Assembly: GCF_037902255.1 (NCBI RefSeq)
Contig: NZ_CP147990.1
Span: forward strand, 1,320,001-1,352,000
DNA from: Candidatus Electrothrix sp. GW3-4
Lineage (GTDB): Bacteria > Desulfobacterota > Desulfobulbia > Desulfobulbales > Desulfobulbaceae
Length of the DNA: 32,000 nt
Reading direction: 5' to 3'
In this document: piece by piece, positions 5,208-23,685 of the stretch
Numbering within the stretch: the first letter of the stretch is position 1
How the letters are laid out: each line of letters opens with the position of its first letter
The notes under the pieces: model-generated
Database searches by the model: none
The model's input: only the letters and a program-made list of their open reading frames with translations
What the model was told of the DNA's origin: nothing
Program-made: the position numbers and the translations under genes

Positions 5208-8200
5208 TCAGAACAGGCTCAACTGCTTGCCTGCTCGCTTCTTCCGTTTCTTGACAACTCTGGGCGGCTCCTTGAGCAGCTCCGGCGGGATCTCGTTCAG
5301 GAAGGGGGAGGGCCTGCGCTCTTCAAGGCCGCTGAAGCCCTGCCGTTCCTCAGCCCCGGTGAGGTAGAGGACCTCAGCAGCACGGGTCATACCGACAAAG
5401 AAGAGGCGCCGTTCCTCACGAAGATGCTCCTCTTCCTCCTCTGGACTCAGCTCGCTGCGCGGGGTCAGGGGAAGGAGCCCCTCCTCGCAGCCCACCAGAA
5501 ACACGGCCCGGAACTCCAGCCCCTTGGCCGCATGCAGGGTGGTGAGGAGCACGGCCTCGGCCCGCTCATCATAGATCAGGCTGTCCTGATGCCTGCGCAG
5601 GTGCCGGGCAAAGGCAGACAGGGAGGGAGAGGAGGTTGCCATGCTGCGGAAGCGGACCAGTTCTGCTGTCTCCTGGTTAAGCTCGGGGACCGGCCCTGTT
5701 GCCTGAGAGTCCAGCTGGTACTGCGCATAGAGCAGGTCCACGGCCTGGGCAACAGACTTCTCTTTGAGGAGCCGGTCGGCAAGCTCCTGCATTGCCCTGA
5801 TGCCTTGCTGCACAGGCTTTGGCAGATCTACCCCCTGAGCATTGACAGCATCCGCAAGGGCGGTGAGCGGTGCCTTGTCCGGGTGCTCAGAGAGTACGGC
5901 CTCAGCAGCAGCCAGCCCCTTGGCTCCGATCCCCTGTTCCTGGCCAAGGAGGAAGAGCAGCTCCGCAGCATCAACCTGACCGGCAGCCAGCAGGCACCAG
6001 TAGGAGAGACGCTTGAGCTCGCCGCGCAGGTAGAAGGGCTGCATATCCACCACCTGACAGGGCAGGGTGCGTTCGGCCAGGGCCTGGGCAATGGTATCGG
6101 TCTGGCGGGAGGTGCGGTACAGTATAGCTATGTCTGAGAGGGCCAGGCTGCCCCCGTCCTCTGGCGCACCAATAAGGCGATCAATCTCCCGGTGGGAGGT
6201 ACCACCAATGAGTTGCTGGATCTGGCTGGCAATAAAGCTGGCCTCGGCCCTGGCACTGGGGGCAAGGTGGCGGAAGATGGTACCGGGCTGCTCTGAGGCT
6301 GCTTGAGGCGAGCAAGGGCGAACACAGGGATTCGCCCCTCCGCCAGCCTCTTTTTCCTCTTCATGATTAGTCGCAATCACCGCCCCTGCTGCCCGCAGAA
6401 TATCAGCCCCGCTGCGGTAGTTGGTGGCCAGCTGGTGAAACTCTGGTTCCTGCTCCGCGATAAAGCGGTGGAACCAGGCAGGTCGGGAGCCACGAAAGCC
6501 GTAGATGGCCTGGTCCGGGTCGCCAATGGCAAAGACCGTGGCGGTCTCGGCCAGCAGGCGCACCAAGTGGTACTGGGCCGCATTGAGGTCCTGGAACTCA
6601 TCCACCAGCAGATGGGCCGTGGCCTGGCGCAGCTCTTCAGTAAACCCTGTATCAGTGTGAAGCAGGGCAGTACAGGCAGGCACGATCTCGTCCAGGTCCA
6701 GCAGGTTATGCTCACGGAGATAGTGGAAATAGGCCTGCAAGGGGAGGGGACAAGCGCTGGGTTCCGGCAGGACCGCCTGCTCGGCCAGAAAGAGGCCCGC
6801 CTCCTGCCGGAGCTGTCTGCGCTCCCGTTCCGCAAGCTCGGGATACTGCCTGCGGAAGACCCAGCCCCGCATCTCCGGGCCAGCCAGTTGCAGCTCTGGA
6901 TCATGGCGGCGCAGCCAATGGAGGCAAAAGCCGTGAAAGGTATCCACCCGCACGGCCTGCTCTGCTGCTTTCTGTACAGCAGCCAGGCGCTGACGGAGTT
7001 CTTCTGCGGCCTTATTGGTAAAGGTGATTACGGTGATGCGATCCTGTCCCCCTTCCAGCAAGCGGAGGACCCGTTGCACCAGGGTGTGGGTTTTGCCCGT
7101 ACCCGGCCCGGCCTGAACAATGACCCGCCGGGCCTTGCTATCCACAGCAGCTTGTTGCTCCGGGTTGAGTTCCTTCCTGGCCTGCATGGGGCTGACCTGG
7201 CTCTTCCGCCTGCGGACCACTGCCTTTCGGGGGCTCTTCTTGCGAGGCTTGGCCGGGGTCATCCCGAAGAGGTTGAGCTGGCCTGCCAGCTGATTCCGCT
7301 CCTCCTCCTCAAAGACCCGGATTACCCCGAACTCGCCGTCAAAGCCGGGCCTGCGGATGACCTTGTTCTCCCGTACCCGCTGGATCGCTGTGCCCAGCAG
7401 GGGCGAGGCCGTGTTGAGCTCCTCTACCGGGGTATCCAGCAGGATCTGAAACTCGGAGCCGAAGCTCTTGATCAGCTTGCTGTAGACCGCACCCACCTTC
7501 TTGGTGGCTGGCCCGCAGCTGAAGAGCTCGCCCAGCATCTCGGCCAGGGGAATCAGGCTATGCACTGCTGGAGAACCCTCGGGCCATTGCGGCTTGTCCC
7601 GGTCTGCCAGTTCCATGACCCGGTAGAGTACCCCAATGGTCATGGGGCGGCCGCATTCCGGGCAGAGGCCCTCGACCTCCACGGTCTGGGCTGGTTCCAG
7701 ACAGACCCCGCATTTGCGGTGGCCGTCGCAATGGTACTTGCCCTCTTCCGGGTAGAATTCCACCGTGGCCTGGAAGCGCTGCTTGCCCTGGTCGTCCACC
7801 GGTCTGCGCAGGGCCTCCTTAAGGGCAGGGAAGCTCAGCTCGGTGGTGAATATATTGGCCTCGCGGCCCAGCTTGGACGGGGAATGGCAGTCGGAGTTGG
7901 AGATCAGGGAGAAGCGGTCCAGGGCCGATATATGGCGGTTCATCTCCGGGTCAGAGGACAGGCCGGTCTCCAGGGCAAAGATCTCGCTGCTCAGGTCGTC
8001 AAAGCATTCCTCAATAGCATCAAAGCCAGACTTAGAACCGAACAGGGAGAACCAGGGGGTCCAGATATGGGCAGGCACCAGGAAGCCCTCCGGGGCCTGC
8101 TCCAGCAGGATCTCCAGCAGGATCTTGGAGTCCAGGCCCAGGATGGGCCGTCCGTCCGACTCCAGGTTGCCGATCCCGGCCAGGACTGTGTTGATGCGGC

Positions 8201-8579
8201 GGGCAGCGTCCAGGTCCGGGACATAGAGCAGGTTATGGATCTTGCGCACCTTACCGCCTCGCTTATAGATGGAGCTGATCTCCGCACTGAGGAGGAAACG
8301 GATTTGCGAGCAGTCCGGCTGTACTCCCGGTGGCAGAATTGGGGCCAGCTCGGTAAAGTCGGGCTGCTCCTTGAGGCGAAAGAGACCGGGTTCTGCCGGT
8401 TCCAGATTATCGGCCAAGTGGGCAAACCAGCCCGGATGGGTGAAGTCGCCAGTGGCAACAACATCAATGCCCTTGATGGCGGCCCAGGCCGCCAGACCGT
8501 GCAGATTGCTGGCCTTGCTGGTGGCCCTGGAGTAGCGGGAGTGGATGTGGAGGTCGGCGATATAGGACATGGAGGGCAT
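5208..8579 (-). CDS. Fusion protein: N-terminal EndoQ-like PHP phosphoesterase with Zn ribbon, plus C-terminal UvrD/PcrA-type SF1 helicase (1123 aa)
   Basis: PHP/EndoQ-type motifs: DLHIHSRYSRATS, TGDFTHP, PAHIWTPW, SNSDCHSP, and the ribbon CDGHRKCGVC...CPECG. Helicase motifs: AGPGTGKTHTL, LLVDEFQDLN, TNYRS, TLHAAKGLEFRAVFLVG, VGMTRA. The start may be M1 (8579) or M4 (8570). Confidence 0.88.
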   Translation of the reverse strand: MPSMSYIADLHIHSRYSRATSKASNLHGLAAWAAIKGIDVVATGDFTHPGWFAHLADNLEPAEPGLFRLKEQPDFTELAPILPPGVQPDCSQIRFLLSAEISSIYKRGGKVRKIHNLLYVPDLDAARRINTVLAGIGNLESDGRPILGLDSKILLEILLEQAPEGFLVPAHIWTPWFSLFGSKSGFDAIEECFDDLSSEIFALETGLSSDPEMNRHISALDRFSLISNSDCHSPSKLGREANIFTTELSFPALKEALRRPVDDQGKQRFQATVEFYPEEGKYHCDGHRKCGVCLEPAQTVEVEGLCPECGRPMTIGVLYRVMELADRDKPQWPEGSPAVHSLIPLAEMLGELFSCGPATKKVGAVYSKLIKSFGSEFQILLDTPVEELNTASPLLGTAIQRVRENKVIRRPGFDGEFGVIRVFEEEERNQLAGQLNLFGMTPAKPRKKSPRKAVVRRRKSQVSPMQARKELNPEQQAAVDSKARRVIVQAGPGTGKTHTLVQRVLRLLEGGQDRITVITFTNKAAEELRQRLAAVQKAAEQAVRVDTFHGFCLHWLRRHDPELQLAGPEMRGWVFRRQYPELAERERRQLRQEAGLFLAEQAVLPEPSACPLPLQAYFHYLREHNLLDLDEIVPACTALLHTDTGFTEELRQATAHLLVDEFQDLNAAQYHLVRLLAETATVFAIGDPDQAIYGFRGSRPAWFHRFIAEQEPEFHQLATNYRSGADILRAAGAVIATNHEEEKEAGGGANPCVRPCSPQAASEQPGTIFRHLAPSARAEASFIASQIQQLIGGTSHREIDRLIGAPEDGGSLALSDIAILYRTSRQTDTIAQALAERTLPCQVVDMQPFYLRGELKRLSYWCLLAAGQVDAAELLFLLGQEQGIGAKGLAAAEAVLSEHPDKAPLTALADAVNAQGVDLPKPVQQGIRAMQELADRLLKEKSVAQAVDLLYAQYQLDSQATGPVPELNQETAELVRFRSMATSSPSLSAFARHLRRHQDSLIYDERAEAVLLTTLHAAKGLEFRAVFLVGCEEGLLPLTPRSELSPEEEEEHLREERRLFFVGMTRAAEVLYLTGAEERQGFSGLEERRPSPFLNEIPPELLKEPPRVVKKRKKRAGKQLSLF

Positions 8580-8728
8580 GGTGTCTGCTGCTGGCTGGGG
8601 TTGGTCGGTTCCCTGATGTCGGGGAGGTTGCGAGGGCGCAGCTTAAAGCCAAGGCGGGGGGATGTCAAGAGAAAGGGGAGGGGGCGGATAGCTGCATTCA
8701 TGCAGGAGATGGGAGCATTCACGGTCCA

Positions 8729-9127
8729 TTACAGCCAATTCTCCATCCGCAGCCCGGCAACTCGCTCAAACTCCCTCAGATTATTCGTGACAACAACCAA
8801 GCCTTCGCTCCGGGCATGTCCAGAGATATGCAAATCATTCACCTCGATCGGTGTGCCACGTCGTTCCAGGTCGGCACGGATATCGCCATAATGCTCAGCC
8901 GCTTTTCTGCCGTATTCCAAGATCTCCAGCCGGGAGGCGAAATCCTCCACCTGCCGCAGGTTATGTCCTGGCCTGGCAGATTTTTCCACCCCGTGGATCA
9001 ACTCGGCAAAAGTGATGGAGCTGATGCACATCTGGCCAGCATGGCGGTTGAAGGTGTCCAGTATCTCCAGCGGTCGCCGTTTGATGACGTAGATAGCAAT
9101 GTTGGTGTCGAGCATGTATTTCAACAT
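8729..9127 (-). CDS. vapC: PIN-domain toxin VapC
   Basis: MLDTNIAIY..., FAEL, and NDLHISGHA...VVVTNN give the typical PIN acidic residues. ATGA overlap with the upstream antitoxin gene. Confidence 0.9.
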   Translation of the reverse strand: MLKYMLDTNIAIYVIKRRPLEILDTFNRHAGQMCISSITFAELIHGVEKSARPGHNLRQVEDFASRLEILEYGRKAAEHYGDIRADLERRGTPIEVNDLHISGHARSEGLVVVTNNLREFERVAGLRMENWL

Positions 9128-9360
9128 CAGAACGCTTCCCTTTCCTGTTGTTCCTGCGAAGCGCGTTCTGTCATGAAATCATCTGTCACTTTTTCGTCGG
9201 ACTTGAAAAAACTGTCCCAAGTATTTTCAACCGGTGAAAGTACACGATCTTTTCCTATAACTCGCACGATAACCTTTTTCACTGAGCTAGGAAAACGGGT
9301 TTCTACTGGCAGCCTGACCGCCTGGGTTCGATTATTAATAAAAACTGATCCAGTACGCAT
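9127..9360 (-). CDS. vapB: AbrB/SpoVT-type antitoxin VapB (77 aa)
   Basis: The track ORF 9127..9429 is trimmed to ATG 9360 (MRTGSVFINNRTQAVRLPVE...), with GGAGG upstream. The stop overlaps the vapC start by 4 bp. Confidence 0.85.
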   Translation of the reverse strand: MRTGSVFINNRTQAVRLPVETRFPSSVKKVIVRVIGKDRVLSPVENTWDSFFKSDEKVTDDFMTERASQEQQEREAF

Positions 9361-9452
9361 AAGAAACCTCCTTGGAGATAATGTGTATACTGAAAGTATA
9401 TAGCATGTCGTCGTGAGCGACAAGGACAAGTTCTATTGGTGTGTGCAGGTTG

Positions 9453-9541: not shown

Positions 9542-9661
9542 GTCGTTTTGGACCACTGTTTGTGGCCGTTATGCTAGTGCTCTGTAAAATCTAAATTTTA
9601 GGGTAGCGTATTTAAAATTAATGTAGCATGTTGTCCGAAAAAAAAATTGAAAGAGGATTTC

Positions 9662-10105
9662 ATGCCAAAAAAATACATTGTCCAATTGACTCCAAAAGAA
9701 CGCTGTCATTTACAGGAGGTTATCAAAAAGCTTTCGGGGGGCAGCCAGAAAGTCCGTCGTGCTCACATCTTATTGAAAGCTGATGCAAATGGCCCCTGTT
9801 GGAAAGACAGCAGGATAGCAGAAGCATTCAACTGTAGGACAAAAACGGTTGAGAACATCCGTCAAAATTTTGTTTTGCACGGTTTTCAACAGGCTCTTGA
9901 CGGAAAAAAACGTGCAACCCCGCCTACTCCGAAACTATTGAATGGGGAGCAGGAGGTTAAAATCATTGCCACTCGTCTTGGTTCACCTCCGCCGGGATAC
10001 GCAAATTGGTCACTGCGCCTTTTAGCCCGACATGTTGTTGAATTGGAAATAGTTCCGTCGATCAGCCATGAAACTATTCGCCAAGTAATAAAAAAAACGG
10101 GATGA
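9662..10105 (+). CDS. IS630 transposase, N-terminal HTH part (orfA)
   Basis: The ATG at 9662 follows aagagga. Helix-turn-helix-like sequence is present. The ORF ends just after the A8 run at 10090-10097. Confidence 0.8.
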   Translation: MPKKYIVQLTPKERCHLQEVIKKLSGGSQKVRRAHILLKADANGPCWKDSRIAEAFNCRTKTVENIRQNFVLHGFQQALDGKKRATPPTPKLLNGEQEVKIIATRLGSPPPGYANWSLRLLARHVVELEIVPSISHETIRQVIKKTG

Positions 10106-10797
10106 ACAACCGGAAAATCCAATACTGGGTTATTCCACCAAAACACGATGCGGAATTCGTGGCCAACATGGAAGATGTGATAGAGGTTTATGAAAGACCG
10201 TATAATCCTAATCATCCTTTTCTTTGTATGGACGAACAACCAGTTCAGCTGATAAAGGAAACTCGTTTACCTATCCCGGCAACTAAAAATCATGCTAAAC
10301 GCGTTGATTATGAGTATGAGCGTAACGGAACAGCCAGTATTTTCATGTTCACCGAGCCTCTTTCAGGCTGGCGTGAAGCCACAGCTCGTCCTCGGCGGAC
10401 TAAAACAGATTGGGCGATCGAAGTGGCTCGCCTCCTTGAAGGTCGCTATGCAGAATGTGAAAAGATAACGTTGGTTTGCGATAATCTCAACACCCATACA
10501 AAGGGAGCTTTTTATGAGGCTTTTCCTCCTGAACGTGCTCGTGCATTAGTACGCCGGATTGAATTTTGTTACACACCGAAACATGGTAGCTGGCTCAATA
10601 TAGCAGAAAACGAATTGAGCTCCATGACTCGACAATGTCTTGCCAATCGTCGTATAGGAGATATCGAGACGTTACAGAAAGAGATTGCCGCATGGTCAAG
10701 CGATGTGAATAACACTCAACGTGGTGTTGAGTGGCAAATGAAAATTTCTGATGCCCGGTGCAAATTAAAATCCGTTTACCCTAAAATTAAGTCGTGA
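10102..10797 (+). CDS. IS630 transposase, DDE catalytic part (orfB), in the -1 frame relative to orfA
   Basis: LCMDEQP, VCDNLNTH and WLNIAENELS give DDE spacing. A -1 slip on A8 would read ...IKKKNGMNNRKIQYWVIPP, which resembles the KKNxxKPW...W.IP junction typical of the family. Confidence 0.85.
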   Translation: MNNRKIQYWVIPPKHDAEFVANMEDVIEVYERPYNPNHPFLCMDEQPVQLIKETRLPIPATKNHAKRVDYEYERNGTASIFMFTEPLSGWREATARPRRTKTDWAIEVARLLEGRYAECEKITLVCDNLNTHTKGAFYEAFPPERARALVRRIEFCYTPKHGSWLNIAENELSSMTRQCLANRRIGDIETLQKEIAAWSSDVNNTQRGVEWQMKISDARCKLKSVYPKIKS

Positions 10798-10813
10798 CAG
10801 AGCACTAGTCTCA

Positions 10814-11104
10814 TCAGCAAAAATGCCAGCCGGTGCGCTCCCAGGGTGACATTTCACTCGGTGACTCACCGTAATATCGTAGCAGCCCCAGGTCTGTGTC
10901 TTTCTCTTCTCCGAGTTCCTGCCCGTGGACGACTTCTCCTTTATAGCTGAGTGTTCCGTATTGATGTTCGCTACGGGTGCCGACCGCACGGTAAGAGAGG
11001 CGTAATTGCCAGCCGCCTTCCTGGAAAAGGGTGTCTGGTTTGACTGGTGAAGAGGGCCTGTTGTTGATCGCAGCAATGACTTGCTCCCAGTCTTTGGGAT
11101 ACAT
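10814..11104 (-). CDS. Hypothetical protein (96 aa)
   Basis: An ORF of ~53% GC directly downstream of small-ORF copy A. Its stop lies 8 nt from the IS630 end. No family recognised. Confidence 0.45.
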   Translation of the reverse strand: MYPKDWEQVIAAINNRPSSPVKPDTLFQEGGWQLRLSYRAVGTRSEHQYGTLSYKGEVVHGQELGEEKDTDLGLLRYYGESPSEMSPWERTGWHFC

Positions 11105-11119
11105 GCTTTCCTTGTCCCG

Positions 11120-11274
11120 TCATCGTTCAAGGTCCGCTGTCATTTTTGCGGCAAGAAGGGACAGTTCGTCTTGGTCGTAGCGTTGCAGGAGTTTTTCAGG
11201 GCGCTCTGTTGGACAACCTGGTGGATATATTCGTTGAACTCGGGACGGGACATTTTTGTATGGTAGTCTTTCAT
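11120..11274 (-). pseudogene. Small-ORF copy A, frameshifted relative to copy B
   Basis: The frame-corrected translation is MKDYHTKMSRPEFNEYIHQVVQQSALK/KLLQRYDQDELSLLAAKMTADLER. It has a 1-nt deletion relative to copy B (gcaggagtttttcaggg vs gcaggagtttattcaaggt). Confidence 0.5.
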
Positions 11275-11303
11275 GGTAGGTTTTGGGGTGAAAGGTGTGG
11301 GAA

Positions 11304-11654
11304 TTAAGTAGGTCTGTTTGAAGTCCTTATTGTTACAAAGTGGAACCCGGTTTCGCTTTCACCTGAAAAATTCTCTTCTTTTAGGTTAAAACCTACTTCA
11401 TTAGCAAGAGGGTGAAAACGATTATATGACTGTTCATCAAAAGCATATGCGGCACCCAATTTTATCCCATTGATTATCTCACCAAATCTGGTTTTCTTTA
11501 TTGTTGTTTTCTTTGCAGATTCTGGTGATACAAAATTTATGAAGTTTTTCATCTCTTGTTCTGAACCAGAGATTACGCAAGCATCTCCATCGCAAATGAC
11601 TTCTGTTTTTGATTTATAAGCGAAATAGCCGATTACCTTGCTGTCACGATGCAT
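11304..11654 (-). CDS. Hypothetical protein (116 aa), low GC
   Basis: The ORF is co-oriented with and 66 bp downstream of the 380-aa ORF. No family recognised. Confidence 0.5.
   Translation of the reverse strand: MHRDSKVIGYFAYKSKTEVICDGDACVISGSEQEMKNFINFVSPESAKKTTIKKTRFGEIINGIKLGAAYAFDEQSYNRFHPLANEVGFNLKEENFSGESETGFHFVTIRTSNRPT
11305..11322. repeat. 17-18 bp direct repeat aagtaggtctgtttgaa (copy 1)
   Basis: Identical to 12885-12902. A degenerate version (agtaggtttggag) lies at ~13172-13184. It overlaps the last codons of the 116-aa ORF. Confidence 0.8.
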
Positions 11655-11720
11655 ATTTATACCTTTTTTGTTTTATGGTTTAACGTGCGTCCCCGATTTA
11701 CCGAAAAATGAAAGAAAGAT

Positions 11721-12863
11721 TTACAGGTTAGCTGAATCAACACGACGTATAAAACTTGCCTTGCGCCTATGCTCTTCCTGAATGGTCATCAGTTTTGATT
11801 TGAACAAACTGGTTGCATTGTTCTTTTTGGCAAGATCCTTCAAATCAATCAGGAGTTTAACCGCTTCATCATAGCTTTTGGGGGTTCTGGTCAAAATAAG
11901 GGTGTTAACTTGCTCCCATATTTCATTTTCTCTTTCGGCCAGTCCGTTCAAATATTTTTCTCTTGCGATGGCCGCTTCCTTTTCCTTGCGTGCTTTTTCC
12001 TTTGCTTTCTGTTCAGCGATCTGCCGGTACTTTTCTTTTGTGTATGCCTCTGCTTTTTGGAGGAGTTCCATTACAGTTCGTGATTTTTTCCCATTACTTT
12101 TGGTATCTTGTGTTGAGAGGGTCTTGCTAAACCGCTGCAACAGTTCGTTTCCTATATGAGGATCGCCGTCATTGATGAGCCGAAAAATAATTGTATCTTT
12201 TTCGCTACTGGGAAGCCCGTCTATCCAGATTTTGAGCTTTTGATCATTTTGAATTGATTTTTGTTCTGCAATACTACTTTCAGCGGCCACCTGGATAAGA
12301 TCCTTATCGAGCCGCATGAAATCTGCGAAACTTTCAAGGGAAGCATTTAAATTTCCAAGATTTGCAGGAACAGGCGGTTCTTCTTCATCGTCTTCTAGCT
12401 CATCCATCTGCGCACAAAAGAGCCAGGCAAGATATAAGCATCGATAGTCCCCCTGGATAAGATCGGAACGTAATGAAATCAATGGAGAGAGATAACCTTC
12501 ACCTTCTTCCCAATCATAATCTTCGGTTTCAGATGTAAAATCAAAGATCAGGTAATCTCCCTTTTCATAGATAGTCCAACTATCTCCGATGCAATATTTA
12601 CTTGCCAGATCCAAATCTATTAATTTTCGTGGAATTCTCAGAAGAAGCTGATGGATTCCCCAGTTGGAGACATATAAAAAGGCATCAAAATATTTTTCTA
12701 CCAGTTTTAACGGGGTACCTTTGAAGTTGCCATAGTTGTATTCATTGACAAAACTTGTGGAGGTGATTTGCGCTCTGGAGGATATATCCCGAAGCACTTG
12801 TTGATCTTTTTGAGATAAAGGTTTGTCTATGGCCTGAAATTCATAATACTGGTATTCACTCAT
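11721..12863 (-). CDS. Hypothetical protein (380 aa): MSEYQYYEFQAID N-terminus, acidic linker, Lys/Glu-rich coiled-coil C-terminal region
   Basis: Long low-GC ORF. The N-terminal YYEF motif resembles a conserved-hypothetical family I cannot name with confidence. The C-terminal part contains KEKYRQIAEQKAKEKARKEKEAAIAREKY. Confidence 0.6.
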   Translation of the reverse strand: MSEYQYYEFQAIDKPLSQKDQQVLRDISSRAQITSTSFVNEYNYGNFKGTPLKLVEKYFDAFLYVSNWGIHQLLLRIPRKLIDLDLASKYCIGDSWTIYEKGDYLIFDFTSETEDYDWEEGEGYLSPLISLRSDLIQGDYRCLYLAWLFCAQMDELEDDEEEPPVPANLGNLNASLESFADFMRLDKDLIQVAAESSIAEQKSIQNDQKLKIWIDGLPSSEKDTIIFRLINDGDPHIGNELLQRFSKTLSTQDTKSNGKKSRTVMELLQKAEAYTKEKYRQIAEQKAKEKARKEKEAAIAREKYLNGLAERENEIWEQVNTLILTRTPKSYDEAVKLLIDLKDLAKKNNATSLFKSKLMTIQEEHRRKASFIRRVDSANL

Positions 12864-12884
12864 ATTTGTTCCTTATATTAGTCT

Positions 12885-12902
12885 CAAGTAGGTCTGTTTG
12901 AA
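12885..12902. repeat. 17-18 bp direct repeat aagtaggtctgtttgaa (copy 2)
   Basis: Identical to 11305-11322. Lies 22 bp upstream of the 380-aa ORF start. Confidence 0.8.
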
Positions 12903-12970
12903 TACAACGAAAACGGATATTCTCTCGACCCAATGAAAAATCTTCACGAAACGCACGCATGTTACCTCAA

Positions 12971-13108
12971 TCATTCCATGCAGGCAAGATGGGTCAGTTC
13001 GTCTTGGTCGTAGAGTTGCAGGAGTTTATTCAAGGTGCCCTGTTGGACAACGTGGCGGATGTATTCGTTCTTGGGCAGGGACAGTTTTATGTGGTAATTT
13101 TTGGGCAT
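12971..13108 (-). CDS. Small-ORF copy B (45 aa), possible ribbon-helix-helix-like regulator
   Basis: MPKNYHIKLSLPKNEYIRHVVQQGTLNKLLQLYDQDELTHLACME. It is below the ORF-track length cutoff and was found through DNA similarity of ~12975-13190 to 11128-11322. The fold guess is weak. Confidence 0.4.
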   Translation of the reverse strand: MPKNYHIKLSLPKNEYIRHVVQQGTLNKLLQLYDQDELTHLACME

Positions 13109-13267
13109 GCTTCATATGCTGCCGTTAACAGTTTTTCATGGTAGTCTTTCGAGGCGTGGTGTATGAAGGGAGTGTGGGATAGTAGGTTTGGAGTATAGGG
13201 CAATATAACATATGGTGGATTCGCAATAGCCCTTTTTGTCTGATTTTTTTTCATTTTACGAGTTCAT

Positions 13268-14182
13268 ATGGAATTTTCCCCATCAAATGTAGCATTTAAT
13301 CGACATGAATCTTTTTCTCTCCGTTTTGGATGGTTGACGAAGGGGTTTAAGGCATTTCAAGATAATCCTGACTTTTTTTCTGCTCCAGATGCCGTAGTGC
13401 AACTTGGTGTTGGTAAAAACATGGTAAATTCAATTCGTCACTGGCTGAGAGCCGCCCAATTGATTGAAATAAATAATGATGAAAAAAGGGTGACCCGTAT
13501 CGGTGAGGCTATCTTTGATAGAAAAAGAGGATATGATCCATATTTAGAAGATGAAGCCACTATCTGGCTCATACATTGGCTAGTTGCGACTAACCCGATT
13601 CATGCGACATCTTGGTACTGGTTTTTTAATCGTTTCCATAAGACTGAGTTTACTAGCCAAGAAGTGTATACGGCCTTGCTTGATTTTTCGCAAGAAAATA
13701 TCACCGGAAAGTACTCCGAGAATTCAATAAAAAATGACTGTGCCGTTTTACTGAGAACCTATGTCCAATCAAGAGGAGATACAAAAATACCAGCAGAAGA
13801 AGCTCTTGATTCACCTCTGTCATTGCTGAAGCTTATCACCTATACCAAAGCGACTAAAACATACCAATCTTGTCTAAAACGACGCGACGACCTACCTATA
13901 GGTATTGTAGGGTATGCTTTGGCTGATTTATTTAGGCAGCGAAAGATAAAAGAAATTTCTATGGAAGATCTTGTTTACAGTAGTGACGGACAAGTTGCCC
14001 CCGGCCCAATTTTTCGGTTGTCGGAAAACGATCTGATCGCTAAACTTGAAGATCTCGTTTATTATCTTCCTAACATTTTTAAAACATCCGAGAGCGCAGG
14101 TATTCATCAACTTTACCTCTTACAGGATATTGACCCGTTGATCTATATTAAAGAGCATTACAAGACCCAACAACAGGGATAA
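13268..14182 (+). CDS. sspB: DUF4007-family protein, SspB-like (DNA phosphorothioation nickase component)
   Basis: The N-terminus is FNRHESFSLRFGWLTKGF...VGKNMVNSIRHWL. It is the first gene of a tightly packed 4-gene operon with a P-loop ATPase, a PAPS-reductase-like gene and a DUF262/DUF1524 gene. Confidence 0.7.
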   Translation: MEFSPSNVAFNRHESFSLRFGWLTKGFKAFQDNPDFFSAPDAVVQLGVGKNMVNSIRHWLRAAQLIEINNDEKRVTRIGEAIFDRKRGYDPYLEDEATIWLIHWLVATNPIHATSWYWFFNRFHKTEFTSQEVYTALLDFSQENITGKYSENSIKNDCAVLLRTYVQSRGDTKIPAEEALDSPLSLLKLITYTKATKTYQSCLKRRDDLPIGIVGYALADLFRQRKIKEISMEDLVYSSDGQVAPGPIFRLSENDLIAKLEDLVYYLPNIFKTSESAGIHQLYLLQDIDPLIYIKEHYKTQQQG

Positions 14183-14187
14183 CCGGC

Positions 14188-17100
14188 ATGAGTTTACAAG
14201 ATTGTATTGTTATTGATACCGTATACACCCGCTCAATCAATCTTGAACGGGATATTGACTCTGCTGCTATTGTCGAGGCGTATATCCCAACCACCCGTTC
14301 ACTCTATACCCTTCGCAAACTAGCTAATACCTTTAACAAAAATAATACTCCCCGTTCTTGGGCGTTGATTGGCCCTTATGGCTCTGGTAAATCCTCTTTT
14401 GCTGTTTACTTATCTCACTTGCTCTATGGAACCAATGACAATAATACAGAAAGAGTTTTTTCCTCGCTTGCTAACCATAGTCAGGGACTCATTGAAAAAT
14501 TTATTAATTATACTGACGGAACAAAGGGGTTCGTATCTATACTGCTCACAGGGTCTCCAGATCCCTTAATACCTCGTTTCTTATTAAGTTTACAAAAATC
14601 GGTATATTCTTTTTGGCGGGATATTCCTGGGCCGCCACCGACAATAATAGCAAAAATTGATGAGGCACTCCAAGAGGGTACCGTTAATACACATCAAGTT
14701 ATTGGACTTGTTGAAATGCTTCGCCAAGCGGTGGAAAAGGCCGGTGGAGCCGGAGTTCTTATCGTTTTTGATGAACTTGGTAAATTTCTCGAATACGAAG
14801 CACGCCATTATGAGGCTAATGACATTTATCTTCTGCAATCCTTGGCAGAACTAGCGGTTACTGGACATAAAACCAATATCTACGTTTTCACTCTTATGCA
14901 TCAAGGGTTCGAACAGTATGCTAGAGGGCTTGGTGAAGATCTACGTAATGAATGGAGTAAGATTCAAGGGCGTTTTGAAAATATACCGTTTCTTGAATCT
15001 ACTGAGCAGACATTACATATTATAAGCAGAGCCTTCAAAAATAGGCTTACAGAAAGAGATAAAGACAGAATTGCGACTAACTGCAAAAAAATAGCTGCTG
15101 TTTTAGATAAAGAAAAAGCTCTGCCCGGTGGTATGCATAGAAATCTTGCTGCTGATCTTTTCGCACAATGCTATCCGTTACACCCCGTTTCAGTGTTACT
15201 TTTGCCTATTCTCTGTCAGAAGATGGCTCAGAATGAACGAACTCTTTTTAGTTATCTTGGTTCTAAAGAGCAGCATGGTTTACGCTATAGCCTTTCTGCA
15301 ATTGACAAGATCGGCGAATGGGTTATGCCTTGGGAAATTTTTGATTATTTTATCCTTAATCAGCCTTCAGTTCTTACCGATCCTATTACTCATCGGCGCT
15401 GGGCGGAAGTTATCACCGCCATTGAACGTCTTGGGGATGTTCCAACGAACTATTTTGAATTACTAAAGACCATCGGTTTGCTGAACATTATTGGAGCCCA
15501 AGGGGGATTCAAGGCAAGTAAAAAGATTATTAGTCTTTGTGCTACGAGCAAAAGAGCTGCTACTATGGCTGCAAATGGCCTGATTGAATCTGCTGTTCTC
15601 CAATTTCGAAAATTCAGTAATGAGTATCGGGTTTGGCAGGGGAGTGATTTTGATTTAGATGCAGCTATCAAAGACGAACTTGATCAGATGGGGTATTTTG
15701 AACTTTGTGATGAGCTGAATAAGAGAAAGCCCCTTCAACCCATTGTCGCTCGTCGTCATACTATAGAGACTGGTTCGCTTCGTTATTTTTCTCCATCTTT
15801 TGTTGACGTAAATACATATAGAAAAAAATCAAATCAAGCAGGTCAGGAGCGAATTGTTTTTTGCTTAGTTGAATCCGCTGAAGAAATAAATAATGCCTAT
15901 GACAAAGTAGTTCCATATTTTTCTGCACAGGATGTGGTGGGTATCTATCGAAATGGTGTCCAACTCAGGGAGGCTGTGGCCGAAGTAATTGCTCTGCACC
16001 GGGTTGAAAATAAGTGTCAGGAGGTAAATAGTGATCCTGTTGCCCAGCGAGAATTTAAGGATCGCCTCGCAGTGGCTGAACAACTAGAGGACGAGTTGCT
16101 CTCCGCCTTGCTGGAAACTCCACAAGAAGCAGAGTGGTTCTGGAGACAAGAAAAGTTAACTGTCACTGGAAAACGGGAACATCAGCAAAAACTTTCTACG
16201 ATTCTGGATGCAGTATACCGCGACACCCCTTATATTCATAATGAGCTGATCAATCGAGAAAAGCCGTCTGCTCAAGCTAATGCCGCTCGTAATAAACTGG
16301 TAATGGCCATGATTAACCATTTGGACGAGCCGGAATTAGGAATAAAAAAATTTCCCCCGGAGAAAGCTATTTATCTTGCTTTTTTGTATTCCACAGGGCT
16401 GCATCAGCAGAGAAAAGACGGATGTTGGGAGTTGAAACCGCCAAGTCGGAATAATAAATGCAATCTTTATCCAGTTTGGCAGGAGATTGATGAATTTTTG
16501 GAAAGCACAAAAAGTACTCCACGTTCTTTTGATGAATTAACTATCCGATTACGAGTGCCTCCTTTTGGAATTAAAGCTGGTCTTCTACCGTTACTTTACC
16601 TCACAGTTTTTCTTGCCAAGCAGCATGAACTGGCATTGTACGAAAATAGTATTTACACGCCCTATATCACCACTCAACACATAGAGCGTTTTATGAAAAA
16701 GCCAAGTTGTTTTACTGTTCAGCTTCTTCAAATTGCAGGTATTCGTGCTTCTTTGTTTCAAGAGTATGCAAAAGTTCTTTTTGGCCGTAATAATAAACAG
16801 GAGGCTACGCTCCATACGATTGCCAAGCCTCTTGCGAAATTTGTTGCGAACCTTGATGAGTATGCAAAACGAACAAATCGTATATCTCCAGCTGGCAAAA
16901 AAGTCAGAAAAGCCATTCAGCTGGCAAAGTCACCAACGGACTTGCTTTTTGTCAAGCTACCAAATGCTTGTGGTTTTCCTGCTGTTGATAATGATGATAT
17001 CAAAGAAAGTCAAATTGAAGGGTTTGCCGCCTCTTTAGTTGAAGCGATCCGTGAACTACGAGATTGCCACAAAAAGATGCTTAACGAGTTGCAAGAATTG

Positions 17101-17682
17101 ATAGCTCATTCTCTTTTACCAGACATGAAGAGAAAGCTTGAACTGTCGGAATTAAGGAGCAAACTGTGTGCAACATATGAGGATCTTGATCAATATACCA
17201 TTGATCATAAAGAGTTGATTCCCTTTATTGAACATCTATCAGAATCTAAAGCAAAAGATGAACTGTGGTTTAATCGGTTGCTGCTCTTTCTGGCGGGGCG
17301 ATCCTCTGAAAAGTGGAGGGATATTGATCGTGATAACGCTTTGAAAAAACTTACTGACTTGTCAAGGCGGCTGCTAGATCTTAACTTTTTACAAAGCTCA
17401 TATAAACGGCAAAAGATAAAAATAGAAGGTGATTTTGATGTGATCTGGCTGAGAACAATGCGACATGGTACAAATTCTGATTGTGATGAACTTGTAAGGA
17501 TTGATGAGACGGCAAAGGAATATATTAGTAAAAATAAAAAACAGTTGAAAAGCTTATTACAAGAACTGGGCGATGAAAGTACCCGTCTTGCCATGCTTGC
17601 GGAACTATTGGATGATACGCTAGTTGAGAGGAAGAAAAATAAAATAAAGAAACGGCAAAAGCCGAAAAGGGTCAATGAGTAA
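14188..17682 (+). CDS. sspC: Large P-loop ATPase (1164 aa), SspC-like
   Basis: Walker A is LIGPYGSGKSSF and Walker B is VLIVFDELGKFLE. It has a 5-bp gap to sspB and an 8-bp overlap with the next gene. Confidence 0.65.
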   Translation: MSLQDCIVIDTVYTRSINLERDIDSAAIVEAYIPTTRSLYTLRKLANTFNKNNTPRSWALIGPYGSGKSSFAVYLSHLLYGTNDNNTERVFSSLANHSQGLIEKFINYTDGTKGFVSILLTGSPDPLIPRFLLSLQKSVYSFWRDIPGPPPTIIAKIDEALQEGTVNTHQVIGLVEMLRQAVEKAGGAGVLIVFDELGKFLEYEARHYEANDIYLLQSLAELAVTGHKTNIYVFTLMHQGFEQYARGLGEDLRNEWSKIQGRFENIPFLESTEQTLHIISRAFKNRLTERDKDRIATNCKKIAAVLDKEKALPGGMHRNLAADLFAQCYPLHPVSVLLLPILCQKMAQNERTLFSYLGSKEQHGLRYSLSAIDKIGEWVMPWEIFDYFILNQPSVLTDPITHRRWAEVITAIERLGDVPTNYFELLKTIGLLNIIGAQGGFKASKKIISLCATSKRAATMAANGLIESAVLQFRKFSNEYRVWQGSDFDLDAAIKDELDQMGYFELCDELNKRKPLQPIVARRHTIETGSLRYFSPSFVDVNTYRKKSNQAGQERIVFCLVESAEEINNAYDKVVPYFSAQDVVGIYRNGVQLREAVAEVIALHRVENKCQEVNSDPVAQREFKDRLAVAEQLEDELLSALLETPQEAEWFWRQEKLTVTGKREHQQKLSTILDAVYRDTPYIHNELINREKPSAQANAARNKLVMAMINHLDEPELGIKKFPPEKAIYLAFLYSTGLHQQRKDGCWELKPPSRNNKCNLYPVWQEIDEFLESTKSTPRSFDELTIRLRVPPFGIKAGLLPLLYLTVFLAKQHELALYENSIYTPYITTQHIERFMKKPSCFTVQLLQIAGIRASLFQEYAKVLFGRNNKQEATLHTIAKPLAKFVANLDEYAKRTNRISPAGKKVRKAIQLAKSPTDLLFVKLPNACGFPAVDNDDIKESQIEGFAASLVEAIRELRDCHKKMLNELQELIAHSLLPDMKRKLELSELRSKLCATYEDLDQYTIDHKELIPFIEHLSESKAKDELWFNRLLLFLAGRSSEKWRDIDRDNALKKLTDLSRRLLDLNFLQSSYKRQKIKIEGDFDVIWLRTMRHGTNSDCDELVRIDETAKEYISKNKKQLKSLLQELGDESTRLAMLAELLDDTLVERKKNKIKKRQKPKRVNE

Positions 17683-18463
17683 GGATAAAATGCGTCATGT
17701 TTGTGGTATTTCCGGCGGCAAAGACAGTGCCGCATTAGCTATTTATTTGAAAGAAAAAGGTGCGATACCTGATGTAGAGTATTTTTTTTCTGATACCGGT
17801 TGTGAGTTACCAGAAACGTATGACTTCATTGACCGTCTTGAAGCCTATCTTGGAAAAAAGATAACTCGGATAGGAGGAGAGGCACCTTTTAAACATCACC
17901 TTTTTATGATGGGAAACATGTTGCCATCTCCAAAGCAACGTTGGTGTACCGTTAAAATGAAAATAGAACCCTTTGAAAAATTTGTAGGAACAGATAACGT
18001 GACGAGTTATATAGCCATCCGCGCCGATGAACATCGTGAAGGTTATATTTCCACTAAATCTAATATTACGCCTGCTTTTCCTTTTATCCACGATGATATT
18101 GTCCGAAAGGATGTCTTTCAAATTTTAGAAGATACTGTTGGTATACCTGAATATTATAAATGGCGTAGTCGTTCAGGCTGTTATTTTTGTTTTTTTCAAC
18201 GACATGAGGAGTGGATTGGCCTTTTTGACAATCATCCTGATTTGTTTCAAAAAGCGGTGGAGATGGAAAAAATTGATCCTGATACCGGAGAAGGATTTTC
18301 TTGGATTCAAGGGATGAGTTTGAAACAGCTTTTAGAGCGTAGGGAAGAAATTATTGAGCTGGCATCGAAGCGAAGAAAGGGAGAGGATAACAGAAGTTGG
18401 CAGGAAATTTTATTGGAAGAAGGGGACTCTGATGATTCAGGGTGCTTGATTTGTAGCCTGTAA
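17675..18463 (+). CDS. sspD: PAPS-reductase/DndC-like ATP pyrophosphatase, SspD-like
   Basis: The PP-loop is VCGISGGKDSAAL. Cys-rich motifs are SGCYFCFF and the C-terminal GCLICSL. Confidence 0.8.
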   Translation: MSKDKMRHVCGISGGKDSAALAIYLKEKGAIPDVEYFFSDTGCELPETYDFIDRLEAYLGKKITRIGGEAPFKHHLFMMGNMLPSPKQRWCTVKMKIEPFEKFVGTDNVTSYIAIRADEHREGYISTKSNITPAFPFIHDDIVRKDVFQILEDTVGIPEYYKWRSRSGCYFCFFQRHEEWIGLFDNHPDLFQKAVEMEKIDPDTGEGFSWIQGMSLKQLLERREEIIELASKRRKGEDNRSWQEILLEEGDSDDSGCLICSL

Positions 18464-18487
18464 TAATCTGTGAGCGGAGTTTTAAAA

Positions 18488-20614
18488 ATGCCTATTGAAA
18501 ATATTGACAGAGAACTCAAGAAGATATACGAGCTAAATACCGCAAAAAAATTCGTTTTACCAAATTTTCAAAGAAGCTTTGTTTGGAAATCAAAAGCACA
18601 AAAGGAGCTTATAGCGTCTTTTATAGTGCATTTGCCAATTGGAAGCCTATTAGTTCTTGAAGGCGAACAGGGGGATTTTTCCGCAAGAGCATTATGCTTT
18701 CCCGATAAAATTCAACCAGCTGAAGATTGTAGCTATGTACTTGATGGTCAGCAAAGATTATCAACGCTTCGGACAGTTTTTTATGATCTTTTTCAAGAGA
18801 GCGATGATTGGTTAGCAACTTGGAATAAATTATATTCAAGTTTGCGAGCTAGATGGTTTATTCGGGTAAAACCTGATAAAAGTGAACTTGATCCTTTCGG
18901 TTTCAGAAAATTACATTTTGAAACACTTATAAAGTACGATCAGGGGCAATTGATTGATTTTATAGAGGAAAGAAAAATATTTAAAACTAGAATTGATGCT
19001 TTCTATCATCCAGGCTACAAGCCTGTAGATAATGACGGAAATAAACTTACCGGAAATAAAGCAAGGTTACATATAGCAAGAAAGTTTGCTGAATTAAATA
19101 TAGTACCACTTTACGAACTTCATAAGGGACAAAACGGTATTCACCATAAAACACTTGATCAAATAGCTTCGAAACGCCTTGATGATTTGAAGGCGGAAGT
19201 AAATGATGCCGATGATTATATTGAGAAATATAATGCTCTATTAGGAGAAGTCGAAGATGACATCGAAGAACTTGTCAAAACTGACGACACTAATGCCATT
19301 GATCAAGCATGGATAGAGCTTAAGGTTAGGTGGGTAAGGAGCGTTTCGGAATACTTAGAAGGGATTACGTCAAGAAAAATACCAATAATTTTACTGCCAA
19401 GCTCTGAAATCAGCCGGGCTGTAGCAATTTTTGAGGCTATCAATAAAGGGGGGACTCCGCTTAGTGTTTATGATTTAGTCGTTGCAAAGGCAGCAAAAAA
19501 TAGTGAAATTGACAATTTATCAAACAGGATATGCAAGAATCTTCGTGATAAAATTCATATTCCAGACCATCTCAATAGTAAGTTTACTTCATCATCATTA
19601 AGCAATAAATGGTCTTGTGAAAATATGCAAGTTATAGACAATAATGAACCTGCTAGATTTGTTCAGGATTGGTATTTGAATATTTTGTCACTTATTGTGT
19701 ATTTGAAAGTGAAAGATCACTCTGAAAAAATAAACGATAACATATATCGTGTTGAATATATAAAAAGAGAAAGAATTCTAGAATTATCTTCTGAAGAGAT
19801 CAATCAGTATACGGACCGTGCGGTGGCTTCTTTGGTAAAAGCTTTTGCATTTGTCCACTTTCGATGCGGTGTAATGAAAGTTAACTCTGTACCTTACAGG
19901 TTAATGGTGTTGGTAATCGCTTATTTTTTAGATGATGAAAACAACTGGGACAATAAAAAAGTAATTGACCAGCTAGAATATTGGTACTGGTGTTCGTTAT
20001 TTGGAGGCGGGTATCATTATCGTCAAAATGAGACATGCATTGAAGATATTGAAAATCTATCTATATTTTTTGAGAAAGGTGAGAATAAATTTCAAAAAAG
20101 AGCAGCTGATGTTCTCGGTATTGTGGGGTATGCAAATAAAGATATGCTCCTAAGAAAAAATGAAGAAATTGAAGGGGCAAGTGTACGAGAAGGGATTTTG
20201 CAATACATACTGAGTAAAAGTCCTGTTGATTTCCTTAATGACGATCAGAAAATAACCAGTTGGGATGTGACGAATGGAAAATTTGATGTTGAAGTGCATC
20301 ATTTGATCCCACTTGCAGGTGCAACAACAATAGATACTTCCTCATCTAAAATTAGAAAAGATAAATCTCATATTTTAAACAGTGCATTAAATCTTACTTA
20401 TATTTCCAAAGATGCCAATAGAAAAATTAGAGACAAAGGGGCAGTTGAATATTTTAACTATATTGACTCTATGAGTACGATTGGCCATTGTGTACCTAGT
20501 GTAGATAAATTAAAAAATGATTACGGAGAAGATTATTATGAAAGTTTCTTAGCTGATCGATTTGAATTTATTTATAGAGAACTCCGGCAAGAGTTAGATG
20601 ATTTGATAAATTAG
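18488..20614 (+). CDS. sspE: DUF262 (N-terminal) + DUF1524/HNH-like (C-terminal) protein, SspE-like PT-dependent restriction component
   Basis: DUF262 motifs are LPNFQRSFVW and LDGQQRLSTL. The C-terminal part has VEVHHLIPL...LNLTYISKDANRKI. The start is moved from GTG 18470 to ATG 18488, which follows ggag. Confidence 0.75.
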   Translation: MPIENIDRELKKIYELNTAKKFVLPNFQRSFVWKSKAQKELIASFIVHLPIGSLLVLEGEQGDFSARALCFPDKIQPAEDCSYVLDGQQRLSTLRTVFYDLFQESDDWLATWNKLYSSLRARWFIRVKPDKSELDPFGFRKLHFETLIKYDQGQLIDFIEERKIFKTRIDAFYHPGYKPVDNDGNKLTGNKARLHIARKFAELNIVPLYELHKGQNGIHHKTLDQIASKRLDDLKAEVNDADDYIEKYNALLGEVEDDIEELVKTDDTNAIDQAWIELKVRWVRSVSEYLEGITSRKIPIILLPSSEISRAVAIFEAINKGGTPLSVYDLVVAKAAKNSEIDNLSNRICKNLRDKIHIPDHLNSKFTSSSLSNKWSCENMQVIDNNEPARFVQDWYLNILSLIVYLKVKDHSEKINDNIYRVEYIKRERILELSSEEINQYTDRAVASLVKAFAFVHFRCGVMKVNSVPYRLMVLVIAYFLDDENNWDNKKVIDQLEYWYWCSLFGGGYHYRQNETCIEDIENLSIFFEKGENKFQKRAADVLGIVGYANKDMLLRKNEEIEGASVREGILQYILSKSPVDFLNDDQKITSWDVTNGKFDVEVHHLIPLAGATTIDTSSSKIRKDKSHILNSALNLTYISKDANRKIRDKGAVEYFNYIDSMSTIGHCVPSVDKLKNDYGEDYYESFLADRFEFIYRELRQELDDLIN

Positions 20615-20755
20615 GTTTACGAACGTACCTCTGATCCACATCTGCTGCACGAGAGACTGTTCCAGAAAGCGAGCAGCATCCACATCCAAAAGATAGGATT
20701 CTATCTTGTCAATGCTCTCGGAAATATGGATCAAATAGAGCCTGTCGTCCTTCAT
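20594..20755 (-). pseudogene. hepT: Truncated HepT (DUF86/HEPN) toxin gene, N-terminal ~40 codons only
   Basis: MKDDRLYLIHISESIDKIESYL...FLEQSLVQQ then runs into unrelated low-GC sequence. The Rx4H HEPN motif is absent. The ATGA start overlaps the mntA stop. Confidence 0.7.
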
Positions 20756-21156: not shown

Positions 21157-21639
21157 TTAATGAGATGCAATAGCTTCCTCCAACCGCTCAACACTCCCCA
21201 CCCGCAGCAACTCCAGCAAAAAAAGGGCCGCAACCTCCACATTCTCCACCCCCGCATCCGTCAGCCCCTCCTGCAACGCAAAAGACATCCCGCCTATCTC
21301 CAGCATATAGGCGGGCGGGGTTTTTCCATAGAGCTGAGAACAGAGAGCCAGCACCGATCCCGGTGACATGGCATGGGTGGTAAAGGAGACAGAGGCGTCG
21401 GGTTGTAGGCGGTAGAAGTTGAAGTGATCAACCGGTGAGCGGGTGGCATCGGCAAAAATGACGATATCATGCTCGCTGAGGAGCAGGGCATCTTCCACAT
21501 TGAGCTGGTAATTGCTGTCCGTGGTTACACCGGGCAGGGCTGCTGCCCGGATGCGTTCTGCCAGGGCGACACCGGCCCCGTCATCTTCCCGGCCCGGATT
21601 GCCAAAGCCGTAGACTAGCACAGAAGGGGGCGAGTTCAC
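21157..21639 (-). CDS. hoxW: [NiFe] hydrogenase maturation endopeptidase
   Basis: VLVYGFGNPGREDDGAGVAL. 4-bp overlap with hoxH. Confidence 0.85.
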   Translation of the reverse strand: MNSPPSVLVYGFGNPGREDDGAGVALAERIRAAALPGVTTDSNYQLNVEDALLLSEHDIVIFADATRSPVDHFNFYRLQPDASVSFTTHAMSPGSVLALCSQLYGKTPPAYMLEIGGMSFALQEGLTDAGVENVEVAALFLLELLRVGSVERLEEAIASH

Positions 21640-23102: not shown

Positions 23103-23133
23103 AATGGTTTATCAGCTCCGATTCCTGGGTTGC

Positions 23134-23685
23134 TTAATCAAATTTGATGACTTCATAGGGGAGTTTCGCTTCCTGACCAGTGACCAGGGCAGTTAATGCC
23201 CCGTAGATCAGGTCAGCCCTGGGTGGGCAGCCGGGAAGGAAATAATCCATCTTCACGATCTCGTGACAGGGATAGACCTTGTCCAGCAGCGCGGGCAGTT
23301 CTGCATCGTTGGGCAGAATTCGCTCCGGGTTTGCCTGGGCCGTGGACGGACTGTTCAGATAGGCTTCTTCCAGGCATTCTTGAATGGGAATATTATTGCG
23401 CATGGCTGGTAATCCGCCCATGATGGCGCATTCGCCCACGGCCACCAGAATACGGCAATGTTTGCGGAAATCGCGCAGGGTATGGATATGCTCGTCATTG
23501 CAGCATCCGCCTTCAATCAACGCGATATCACAGTCCTGCTCAAAGGTCTTGATATCGTTAATCGGGCTTTTGCCCCAGTGAACCAACTCGACAAGATCAA
23601 GAATGCGTTCATCTATGTCAAGAAAAGACATGTGACAGCCGAAGCAGCCTGCCAGGGAAGCAGTGGCAATAATCGGTTTCTTCAT
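23134..23685 (-). CDS. hoxY: [NiFe] hydrogenase small subunit (NuoB-like)
   Basis: ATASLAGCFGCHMSFLDID...LPGCPP. 183 aa. Confidence 0.88.
   Translation of the reverse strand: MKKPIIATASLAGCFGCHMSFLDIDERILDLVELVHWGKSPINDIKTFEQDCDIALIEGGCCNDEHIHTLRDFRKHCRILVAVGECAIMGGLPAMRNNIPIQECLEEAYLNSPSTAQANPERILPNDAELPALLDKVYPCHEIVKMDYFLPGCPPRADLIYGALTALVTGQEAKLPYEVIKFD

Follow-up and report, generated by a model that had tools for sequence, protein, structure and literature searches.

Probable mosaic of decayed gene copies and palindromic repeat remnants at an apparent cassette module in Candidatus Electrothrix sp. GW3-4

A stretch of 32,000 nucleotides (nt) of the Candidatus Electrothrix sp. GW3-4 genome (contig NZ_CP147990.1, positions 1,320,001 to 1,352,000), hereafter the window, was analyzed around positions 11120-13190, where a preliminary description had noted two homologous segments, each with a leader and a small open reading frame (ORF), and 17-bp direct repeats around two genes of 380 and 116 amino acids (aa). 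Judging from comparisons with related genomes, the locus is probably a mosaic of decayed gene fragments and repeat remnants in a hypervariable island and not a new cassette system. The small ORF is identified by alignment as the first ~45-50 codons of a Candidatus Electrothrix-specific 154-aa gene, and the 17-bp direct repeats as the conserved outer tips of a longer palindromic repeat, here called PE, of which two copies stood here in the same orientation. The coordinates of the features are collected in Table 1; labels beginning with G and L denote the genomes and loci compared, G000 being the genome studied here.

The homology of the two segments, copies A and B, was borne out by a repeat search within the window, which paired 11150-11194 with 12983-13027 (93%) and 11192-11235 with 13026-13069 (84%). 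A third stretch, 11250-11272, paired with both 13081-13103 and 13128-13150. Between the first two pairs the register changes by 1 nt, which confirms the 1-nt deletion noticed earlier in copy A. When copy B was searched against the 4.64-Mb genome at the DNA level, its sole other match was copy A (83% over 120 nt, E 1e-28). Both small ORFs lie on the minus strand, at 11140-11274 (44 aa) and 12971-13108 (45 aa). Beyond what had been described, copy A was found to run on into a 96-aa ORF (10814-11104) as one gene, copy B to carry a local duplication of ~45 nt at its ancestral start codon, and the 17-mer to belong to the longer palindromic repeat. A scan of 10700-13400 for sigma-70 promoters gave no hits.

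The 17-mer AAGTAGGTCTGTTTGAA is exact at 11306-11322 and at 12886-12902, so that the repeats themselves hold as described while their coordinates had been one base off. Chance is excluded for two exact 17-mers 1.6 kb apart. With up to two mismatches allowed, the 17-mer had only these two sites in the 4.64-Mb genome; the reversed-sequence control gave 1+1. The degenerate third version, said to lie at the end of copy B, was also found, as tagtaggtttggag upstream of copy B (~13180-13193). The preliminary description had held that a 17-mer and small ORF occurring only here would speak for a local duplication with no cassette behavior; within this genome both do occur only here, but this is not so across the genus.

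Directly upstream of the 380-aa gene, five other Electrothrix genomes have the 32 nt that end in the 17-mer, and the same 32 nt recur at this locus upstream of unrelated genes. Extension of the aligned copies defined PE as a ~90-nt element, TGCGTAGGTCCGATTGAGTGCAACGAAATCAGACA-loop-TGTCCGTTTTCGTTGCACTCAAACAGACCTACTT. Folded as single-stranded DNA, this imperfect palindrome reached −23 kcal/mol, compared with −8.6 ± 2.0 for shuffled sequences (z = −7.3), and across 12 copies 92.5% of the cells were paired; the 12 copies were too alike for covariation to be informative. The alignments, and most of the 16 copies printed from this genome, keep the termini GTAGGTC … GACCTAC. Read on the plus strand, the 17-mer of the window, AA-GTAG-GTCTGTTT-GAA, matches the outer tip of the right arm with its GTAG tag. 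PE has ~26 sites in this genome (nhmmer) and is present in 14/14 genomes of the genus according to a covariance model search. The exact right-arm pattern had 57 matches in a species-level genome collection, all of them in Electrothrix, Electronema or Desulfobulbus/Desulfobulbaceae. No Rfam family was found for PE, the Rfam matches being only sub-threshold miRNA-like hairpins on it and a group II intron fragment beside it; a literature search found no paper on palindromic repeats in Electrothrix.

The related genomes show how the two repeats of the window were shortened. Ca. E. communis (G037) retains the ancestral order, with PE, 380-aa gene, 116-aa gene, complete PE, leader and 154-aa gene. 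Its complete proximal PE (L155 8194-8278) lies between the 116-aa gene and the 154-aa leader, and alignment against it indicated that ~70 nt of the PE at this position have been lost both in the window and in G070. A complete distal PE immediately precedes the 380-aa gene in G070, G037, G020, E. laxa and E. aarhusensis. In the window its left arm and loop are deleted, and E. gigas has the complementary deletion, with the right arm lost. As both PEs of the window are without left arm and loop, neither remnant can form the hairpin.

To judge from its neighbors, PE is not attached to any particular gene. Within 400 nt of 51 full-length copies there were 87 ORFs, which fell into 75 clusters, with a median gap of ~80 nt between PE and ORF. 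Downstream, 28 ORFs were in the opposite and 16 in the same orientation, and upstream 23 were in the same and 20 in the opposite one, giving no preference. Neighbors so diverse and unoriented make PE a generic intergenic repeat that is no leader and is tied to no cargo. Orientation relative to the replichores followed one rule at 17 of the 26 sites, a bias that was not significant; copies in arrays are also non-independent.

The small ORF had been proposed to be a regulator or antitoxin in its own right. A search of 5.8 billion proteins with the 45-aa product returned the query alone, and neither Pfam nor PADLOC gave a match for the small ORF. A six-frame search of 100 genomes of the family with the frame-repaired copy A as query gave strong matches confined to the same genus. 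The match in G081, G044 and G074 belongs to a single open frame that includes the 96-aa ORF of the window and encodes an intact 154-aa protein (MKNYHIKMSLPEFNEYIHQ…WERTGWHFC; L015 1501-1965 in G081). The pairwise ratios of nonsynonymous to synonymous substitution rates (dN/dS) among these three intact copies were 0.09-0.17, with the first 50 codons constrained too, which indicates a real gene under purifying selection as a 154-aa protein. Thus, the small ORF does not stand up as an independent gene: it has no homologue alone, and in the sister genomes it is the N-terminus of the 154-aa protein. The 154-aa family is restricted to Electrothrix and has as its sole database relative a hypothetical protein of Ca. 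E. marina. A single-sequence AlphaFold model of the protein was unusable (pLDDT 36.8). Plus-strand ORFs of 61 aa were also considered as genes and were rejected, because the minus-sense gene is intact in relatives and has a dN/dS far below 1.

About 35 nt 5' of the ATG of the 154-aa gene are kept in G081, G044, G074, G037, G070 and copy B. This leader (11275-11305; 13109-13180) is C-rich, reading …CACCCCAAAACCT.CC-ATG, and is kept in every copy, the dead ones too. It has no evident Shine-Dalgarno sequence or purine run.

Copy A and the 96-aa ORF together align as a full-length pseudogene of the 154-aa gene, 94% identical to the copy in G070. Its lesions are the 1-nt deletion, placed near 11194, and a TGA at 11120-11122 where the sister genomes have TGG. 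An IS630-family insertion sequence (IS), with transposase ORFs at 9647-10105 and 10102-10797, follows directly. The right end of the IS630 is 5 nt past the double stop TGATGA of the pseudogene (window 10808-10816), so the insertion did not truncate it. Copy B aligns as a 5' stub, its homology to the 154-aa gene stopping at ~12985 after the first ~41 codons only, and its 45-aa ORF begins at a non-ancestral ATG. It is 93% identical to a B-type copy in G065, with which it has a 3-nt deletion in common (PKNEY). The stub is fused to a 31-nt scrap of a 105-aa ORF, which sits between copy B and the distal PE remnant; in E. gigas the 105-aa ORF lies upstream of PE and the 380-aa gene. By these alignments, A and B are assigned as two old alleles or paralogues of one gene (~83% identical), both dead here.

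The two genes between the repeats are, as far as their homologues tell, not a conserved pair. Among 80 loci examined with a homologue of the 380-aa gene, none (0/80) held the 154-aa or the 116-aa gene, and the coupling of small ORF and cargo that had been suggested is not upheld. The 380-aa gene is not accompanied by the 116-aa gene in E. laxa, E. aarhusensis, E. gigas, G020, Desulfobacter and Desulfobacula, and homologues of the 116-aa gene were found in unrelated contexts. In other phyla, the 380-aa family closes operons that begin with an AEP-TOTE primase-helicase gene. The protein is 83-92% identical across Electrothrix, Desulfobacter and Desulfobacula, where its gene stands alone, which suggests a recent lateral spread of an orphaned operon component. 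The operon seen in many other phyla (L058, L060, L062, L065) has three genes, encoding an AEP-TOTE primase and superfamily 2 (SF2) helicase of ~845 aa, an unnamed protein of ~243-276 aa and the 380-aa protein. A literature search found no paper on a "TOTE conflict" system.

The 116-aa gene belongs to an independent, widespread family of ~113 aa. Its final codons run into the PE remnant, and the last 5-8% of the window copy is not covered by homologues. The two contexts of homologues that were examined are integron cassette arrays bounded by attC sites (L265 3343-3409; L266 1121-1184), and the window gene looks like an ex-integron cassette. The window copy has a GTTAAAC core 34 nt upstream of its ATG (11678-11684) and GTAAC at its end; it has lost the attC stem-loop, and PE starts 7 nt on (11304-11330).

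These observations bear on the model of the preliminary description, in which the 17-mers are core sites of site-specific recombination and the small ORF with its leader is a functional regulator or antitoxin that moves with the cargo. The model is very unlikely in our view, even though the two genes are bracketed by exact 17-mers, PEs at the same locus precede different genes in different genomes, and PE-bounded toxin-antitoxin modules at another locus differ in order between two genomes. The small ORF is a piece of a gene and lacks homologues in its own right, the cargo genes are without it in 80/80 loci, and both repeats of the window are shortened remnants of a longer palindrome whose neighbors follow no orientation rule. 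The recombinase expected to go with the unit was not found either, no such gene lying within it. The idea of cassette punctuation survives in part: PE marks gene modules in the island across the genus, but as a dispersed hairpin repeat with unrelated and unoriented neighbors.

A known class of repeats offers a closer parallel to PE. According to Bertels and Rainey (2011, PMC3116915), REPINs are doublets of repetitive extragenic palindromic (REP) sequences that form hairpins and are accompanied by REP-associated tyrosine transposases (RAYTs). Di Nocera et al. (2013, PMC3733652) describe head-to-head dimers of GTAG-tagged REP units forming one hairpin, with frequent remnants and single arms and with clusters reiterated together with flanking DNA. 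PE likewise consists of two inverted arms, each carrying GTAG at its outer end, that fold into a single long and imperfect hairpin. Its copies are extragenic, dispersed and confined to the lineage, they are frequently reduced to a single arm or a partial remnant, and clusters are repeated along with the DNA that flanks them. Moreover, copies of PE flank a Y1 (IS200-like) RAYT homologue, and from these sequence features PE is classed as a REPIN-like repeat with GTAG…CTAC termini. The Y1 homologue has the HUH (PNHVHGII) and Tyr (NYWEHII) motifs and scored 25.8 bits with Pfam Y1_Tnp (cut-off 23). In G000, G044, G084 and G070, the Y1 gene or what is left of it has PEs on both sides, at distances of 160-290 nt (5') and 720-850 nt (3'); these loci are partly orthologous and so not independent.

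Several findings weigh against this classification. The Y1 homologue reached 63 bits (E 2e-17) with NCBIfam REP_Tyr_transpos, below the curated cut-off of 80, and several RAYT paralogues are without PE within 1.5 kb. A number of ~26 sites per genome is low for a classical REP/REPIN family, in which hundreds are usual. The arms of PE are long (~34 nt) and GTAG is base-paired within the big hairpin, unlike in REPINs. Single arms fold weakly, at −1.7 to −4.2 kcal/mol, no better than shuffled sequences; each could be drawn as a stem of 8 bp closing a loop of 11 nt. Around the PEs downstream of purL and at 3.83 Mb, relatives yielded neither an empty site nor a target-site signature, the intergenic DNA there being too diverged or rearranged, so that the mobility of PE can only be presumed.

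PE could instead be a miniature inverted-repeat transposable element (MITE), a non-autonomous derivative of a DDE-type IS and not a RAYT-driven REPIN, which would leave the rest of the explanation unchanged. Such an origin would suit its long terminal inverted repeats (CAGnTGnGTAGG … CCTACnnGGCTG), its moderate copy number and the abundance of IS elements in these genomes (IS630, IS110, IS4). The GTAG…CTAC termini and the fixed distances at which PE flanks the Y1/RAYT-like gene in four genomes argue against it, PE is dissimilar to the ends of the IS630 in the window, and the printed PE flanks show no target-site duplication. We therefore consider a MITE unlikely and retain PE as REPIN-like.

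The locus lies in a variable island between a NiFe-hydrogenase operon (21157-26266, with a maturation protease) and vapBC with PHP-UvrD (5208-9429). Synteny of the island was compared in G037, G020, G051 (E. laxa), G070 and G065. PE precedes different genes at the same locus in different Electrothrix genomes, and in six genomes the modules of the island have their boundaries at PE. The slot from copy B to the hydrogenase flank is filled in the window by an SspBCD-SspE-like operon with a GC content of ~40%, versus ~60% in the flanks. This operon is absent from the slot in G070, which has a TPR protein, an IS4-type transposase and a group II intron there, and in G065, where the slot is only ~0.7 kb; G020 and G037 have other genes. 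The variation in content marks the slot as a defence hot spot in a hypervariable island. The leader region of copy B is most likely now only the divergent upstream region of the Ssp operon. The low-GC Ssp-like block (13200-20745) has sharp homology breakpoints at ~12917 and 20745.

Composite repeat arrays, with units of ~225 nt made up of PE and ~140 nt, alternate with toxin-antitoxin modules at G000:C1:620600-629600, L153 (G020) and L152 (G065). They adjoin RHS genes, and the modules are HigBA, VapBC and RelE/ParE-like, in an order that differs between G000 and G020. A RAYT-like gene within the composite-repeat array is in turn split by another REP-like insert. Pieces of group II introns adjoin the 5' side of PEs (L044 3000-3092; L042 9904-11261 of G070), one being an RF02005 D1-D4 fragment and one a frameshifted reverse transcriptase. 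In E. laxa the group II intron breaks off ~30 nt before PE.

The island also resembles integron arrays and CALINs, clusters of attC sites without an integrase. It has same-orientation hairpin sites 0.8-2 kb apart with toxin-antitoxin or defence genes between them, its gene content at one chromosomal slot varies among relatives, and other bacteria have one of the cargo genes, that of 116 aa, as a true cassette gene. One could accordingly ask whether the PEs are attC sites, making the island a CALIN on which the IntI of the genome acts. The genome does encode a bona fide IntI (TIGR02249, 433 bits), PE is an imperfect hairpin with conserved mismatches, PEs occur in same-orientation arrays interleaved with toxin-antitoxin modules, and the GTTAAAC core of the former cassette is kept in the window. 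We nevertheless regard this as very unlikely. The only IntI above the cut-off is 1.44 Mb away (G000 2771805-2772746), not adjacent to the island, and has no PE near it. The attC candidate beside intI is canonical (GCATAAC…GTTAGGC, G000 2773356-2773453) and looks different from PE, which ends in GTAGG/CCTAC and is without R'' (RYYYAAC) and R' (GTTRRRY) boxes there. The AAC/GTT motifs of PE (GTGCAAC/GTTGCAC) are instead mid-stem, each with one mismatch to the consensus, and outside them lie 14-19 bp of conserved pairing, which excision at G/TT would not preserve. In addition, the genes flanking PE are not co-oriented. A crude attC scan of the island gave one weak match inside the 380-aa gene and no other; the attCs of the control loci were recovered. 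Self-BLAST for attC repeats near intI found nothing, and a looser scan gave the one canonical candidate, which lies ~600 nt upstream of intI; G037 has an orthologous integrase.

With PE read as a REPIN-like repeat, the locus may have formed as follows. PE would have been spread by the RAYT-type Y1 transposase acting on single-stranded hairpin DNA. The long palindrome would be prone to partial deletion, three independent truncations of the same two PEs being seen, and dispersed copies would supply homology for recombination; together these properties would explain the module boundaries at PE. A block consisting of PE, the 380-aa gene, the 116-aa gene, PE and copy A of the 154-aa gene would have joined into a resident B-type gene, duplicating the 5' end of that gene. 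The join would have been guided by homology on the downstream side, and the stub would be what an illegitimate joint at codon ~41 of B left behind. Against this account stands the alternative that copy B arose by tandem duplication and then decayed, and the order of events is a reconstruction. The PE remnants and the 45-aa ORF are probably inert today.

Homology-facilitated illegitimate recombination and rearrangements associated with REP sequences and bacterial interspersed mosaic elements (BIMEs) are known in Enterobacteria. As in those cases, the window has a partial gene duplication at the edge of an inserted block, a junction filled with unrelated gene scraps and repeats at rearrangement breakpoints. 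Unlike in those cases, the event is reconstructed from comparisons only, with donor and direction presumed.

PE and the RAYT-like transposase could even form a cassette-shuffling system of cable bacteria, a REPIN-built functional analogue of integron attC sites. The PEs would then be portable sites of single-strand recombination, through which defence and toxin-antitoxin modules are inserted, deleted and reordered. This is hinted at by PE at module boundaries in six genomes, by the reordered toxin-antitoxin modules and by the lost attC of the 116-aa gene where PE begins, and we rate it as distinctly unlikely.

Table 1. Features assigned in and around the locus (window coordinates).
Feature	Position	Strand	Basis or remark
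IS630-family insertion directly 3' of the pseudogene A stop	9574..10808	+	32-nt inverted repeats
Copy A and 96-aa ORF, full-length pseudogene of the 154-aa gene	10814..11274	-	alignments to sister genomes
Conserved C-rich leader of the 154-aa gene (…CACACCTTTCACCCCAAAACCTACC-ATG)	11275..11305	-	alignments
116-aa gene, independent widespread ~113-aa family	11304..11654	-	548 homologues
Proximal 17-mer, last ~19 nt of PE (GTAG tag and half a stem)	11306..11324	-	other ~70 nt deleted
380-aa gene, widespread family, alone here	11721..12863	-	558 related loci found
Distal 17-mer in a 32-nt remnant, complete PE right arm	12886..12917	-	nhmmer, model positions 52-88
31-nt scrap of a 105-aa ORF	12932..12962	-	100% identity to L046 3835-3865, inside ORF 3615-3932
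Copy B, 5' stub of ~41 codons, B-type allele or paralogue	12971..13150	-	alignments
Copy B leader and degenerate PE end (tagtaggtttggag at 13180-13193)	13151..13194	-	aligns with copy A and G037 upstream regions
SspBCD-SspE-like low-GC operon, between copy B and the hydrogenase flank	13268..20614	+	Pfam DUF4007, PAPS_reduct, GmrSD_N/C

For annotation, the results mean that neither the 44/45-aa ORFs nor the 96-aa ORF should be listed as genes and that the C-terminus of the 116-aa protein is read from repeat DNA. With PE, the REPIN-like repeats gain a new lineage-specific member, a family of GTAG-tagged palindromes of ~90 nt that is confined to cable bacteria and close relatives of theirs and has a candidate cognate RAYT. 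The rest of the locus is ordinary genome decay in a defence-island hot spot. The slot delimited by the hydrogenase on one side and vapBC/PHP-UvrD on the other, with its differing defence content, gives a handle on island turnover in an uncultured multicellular lineage.

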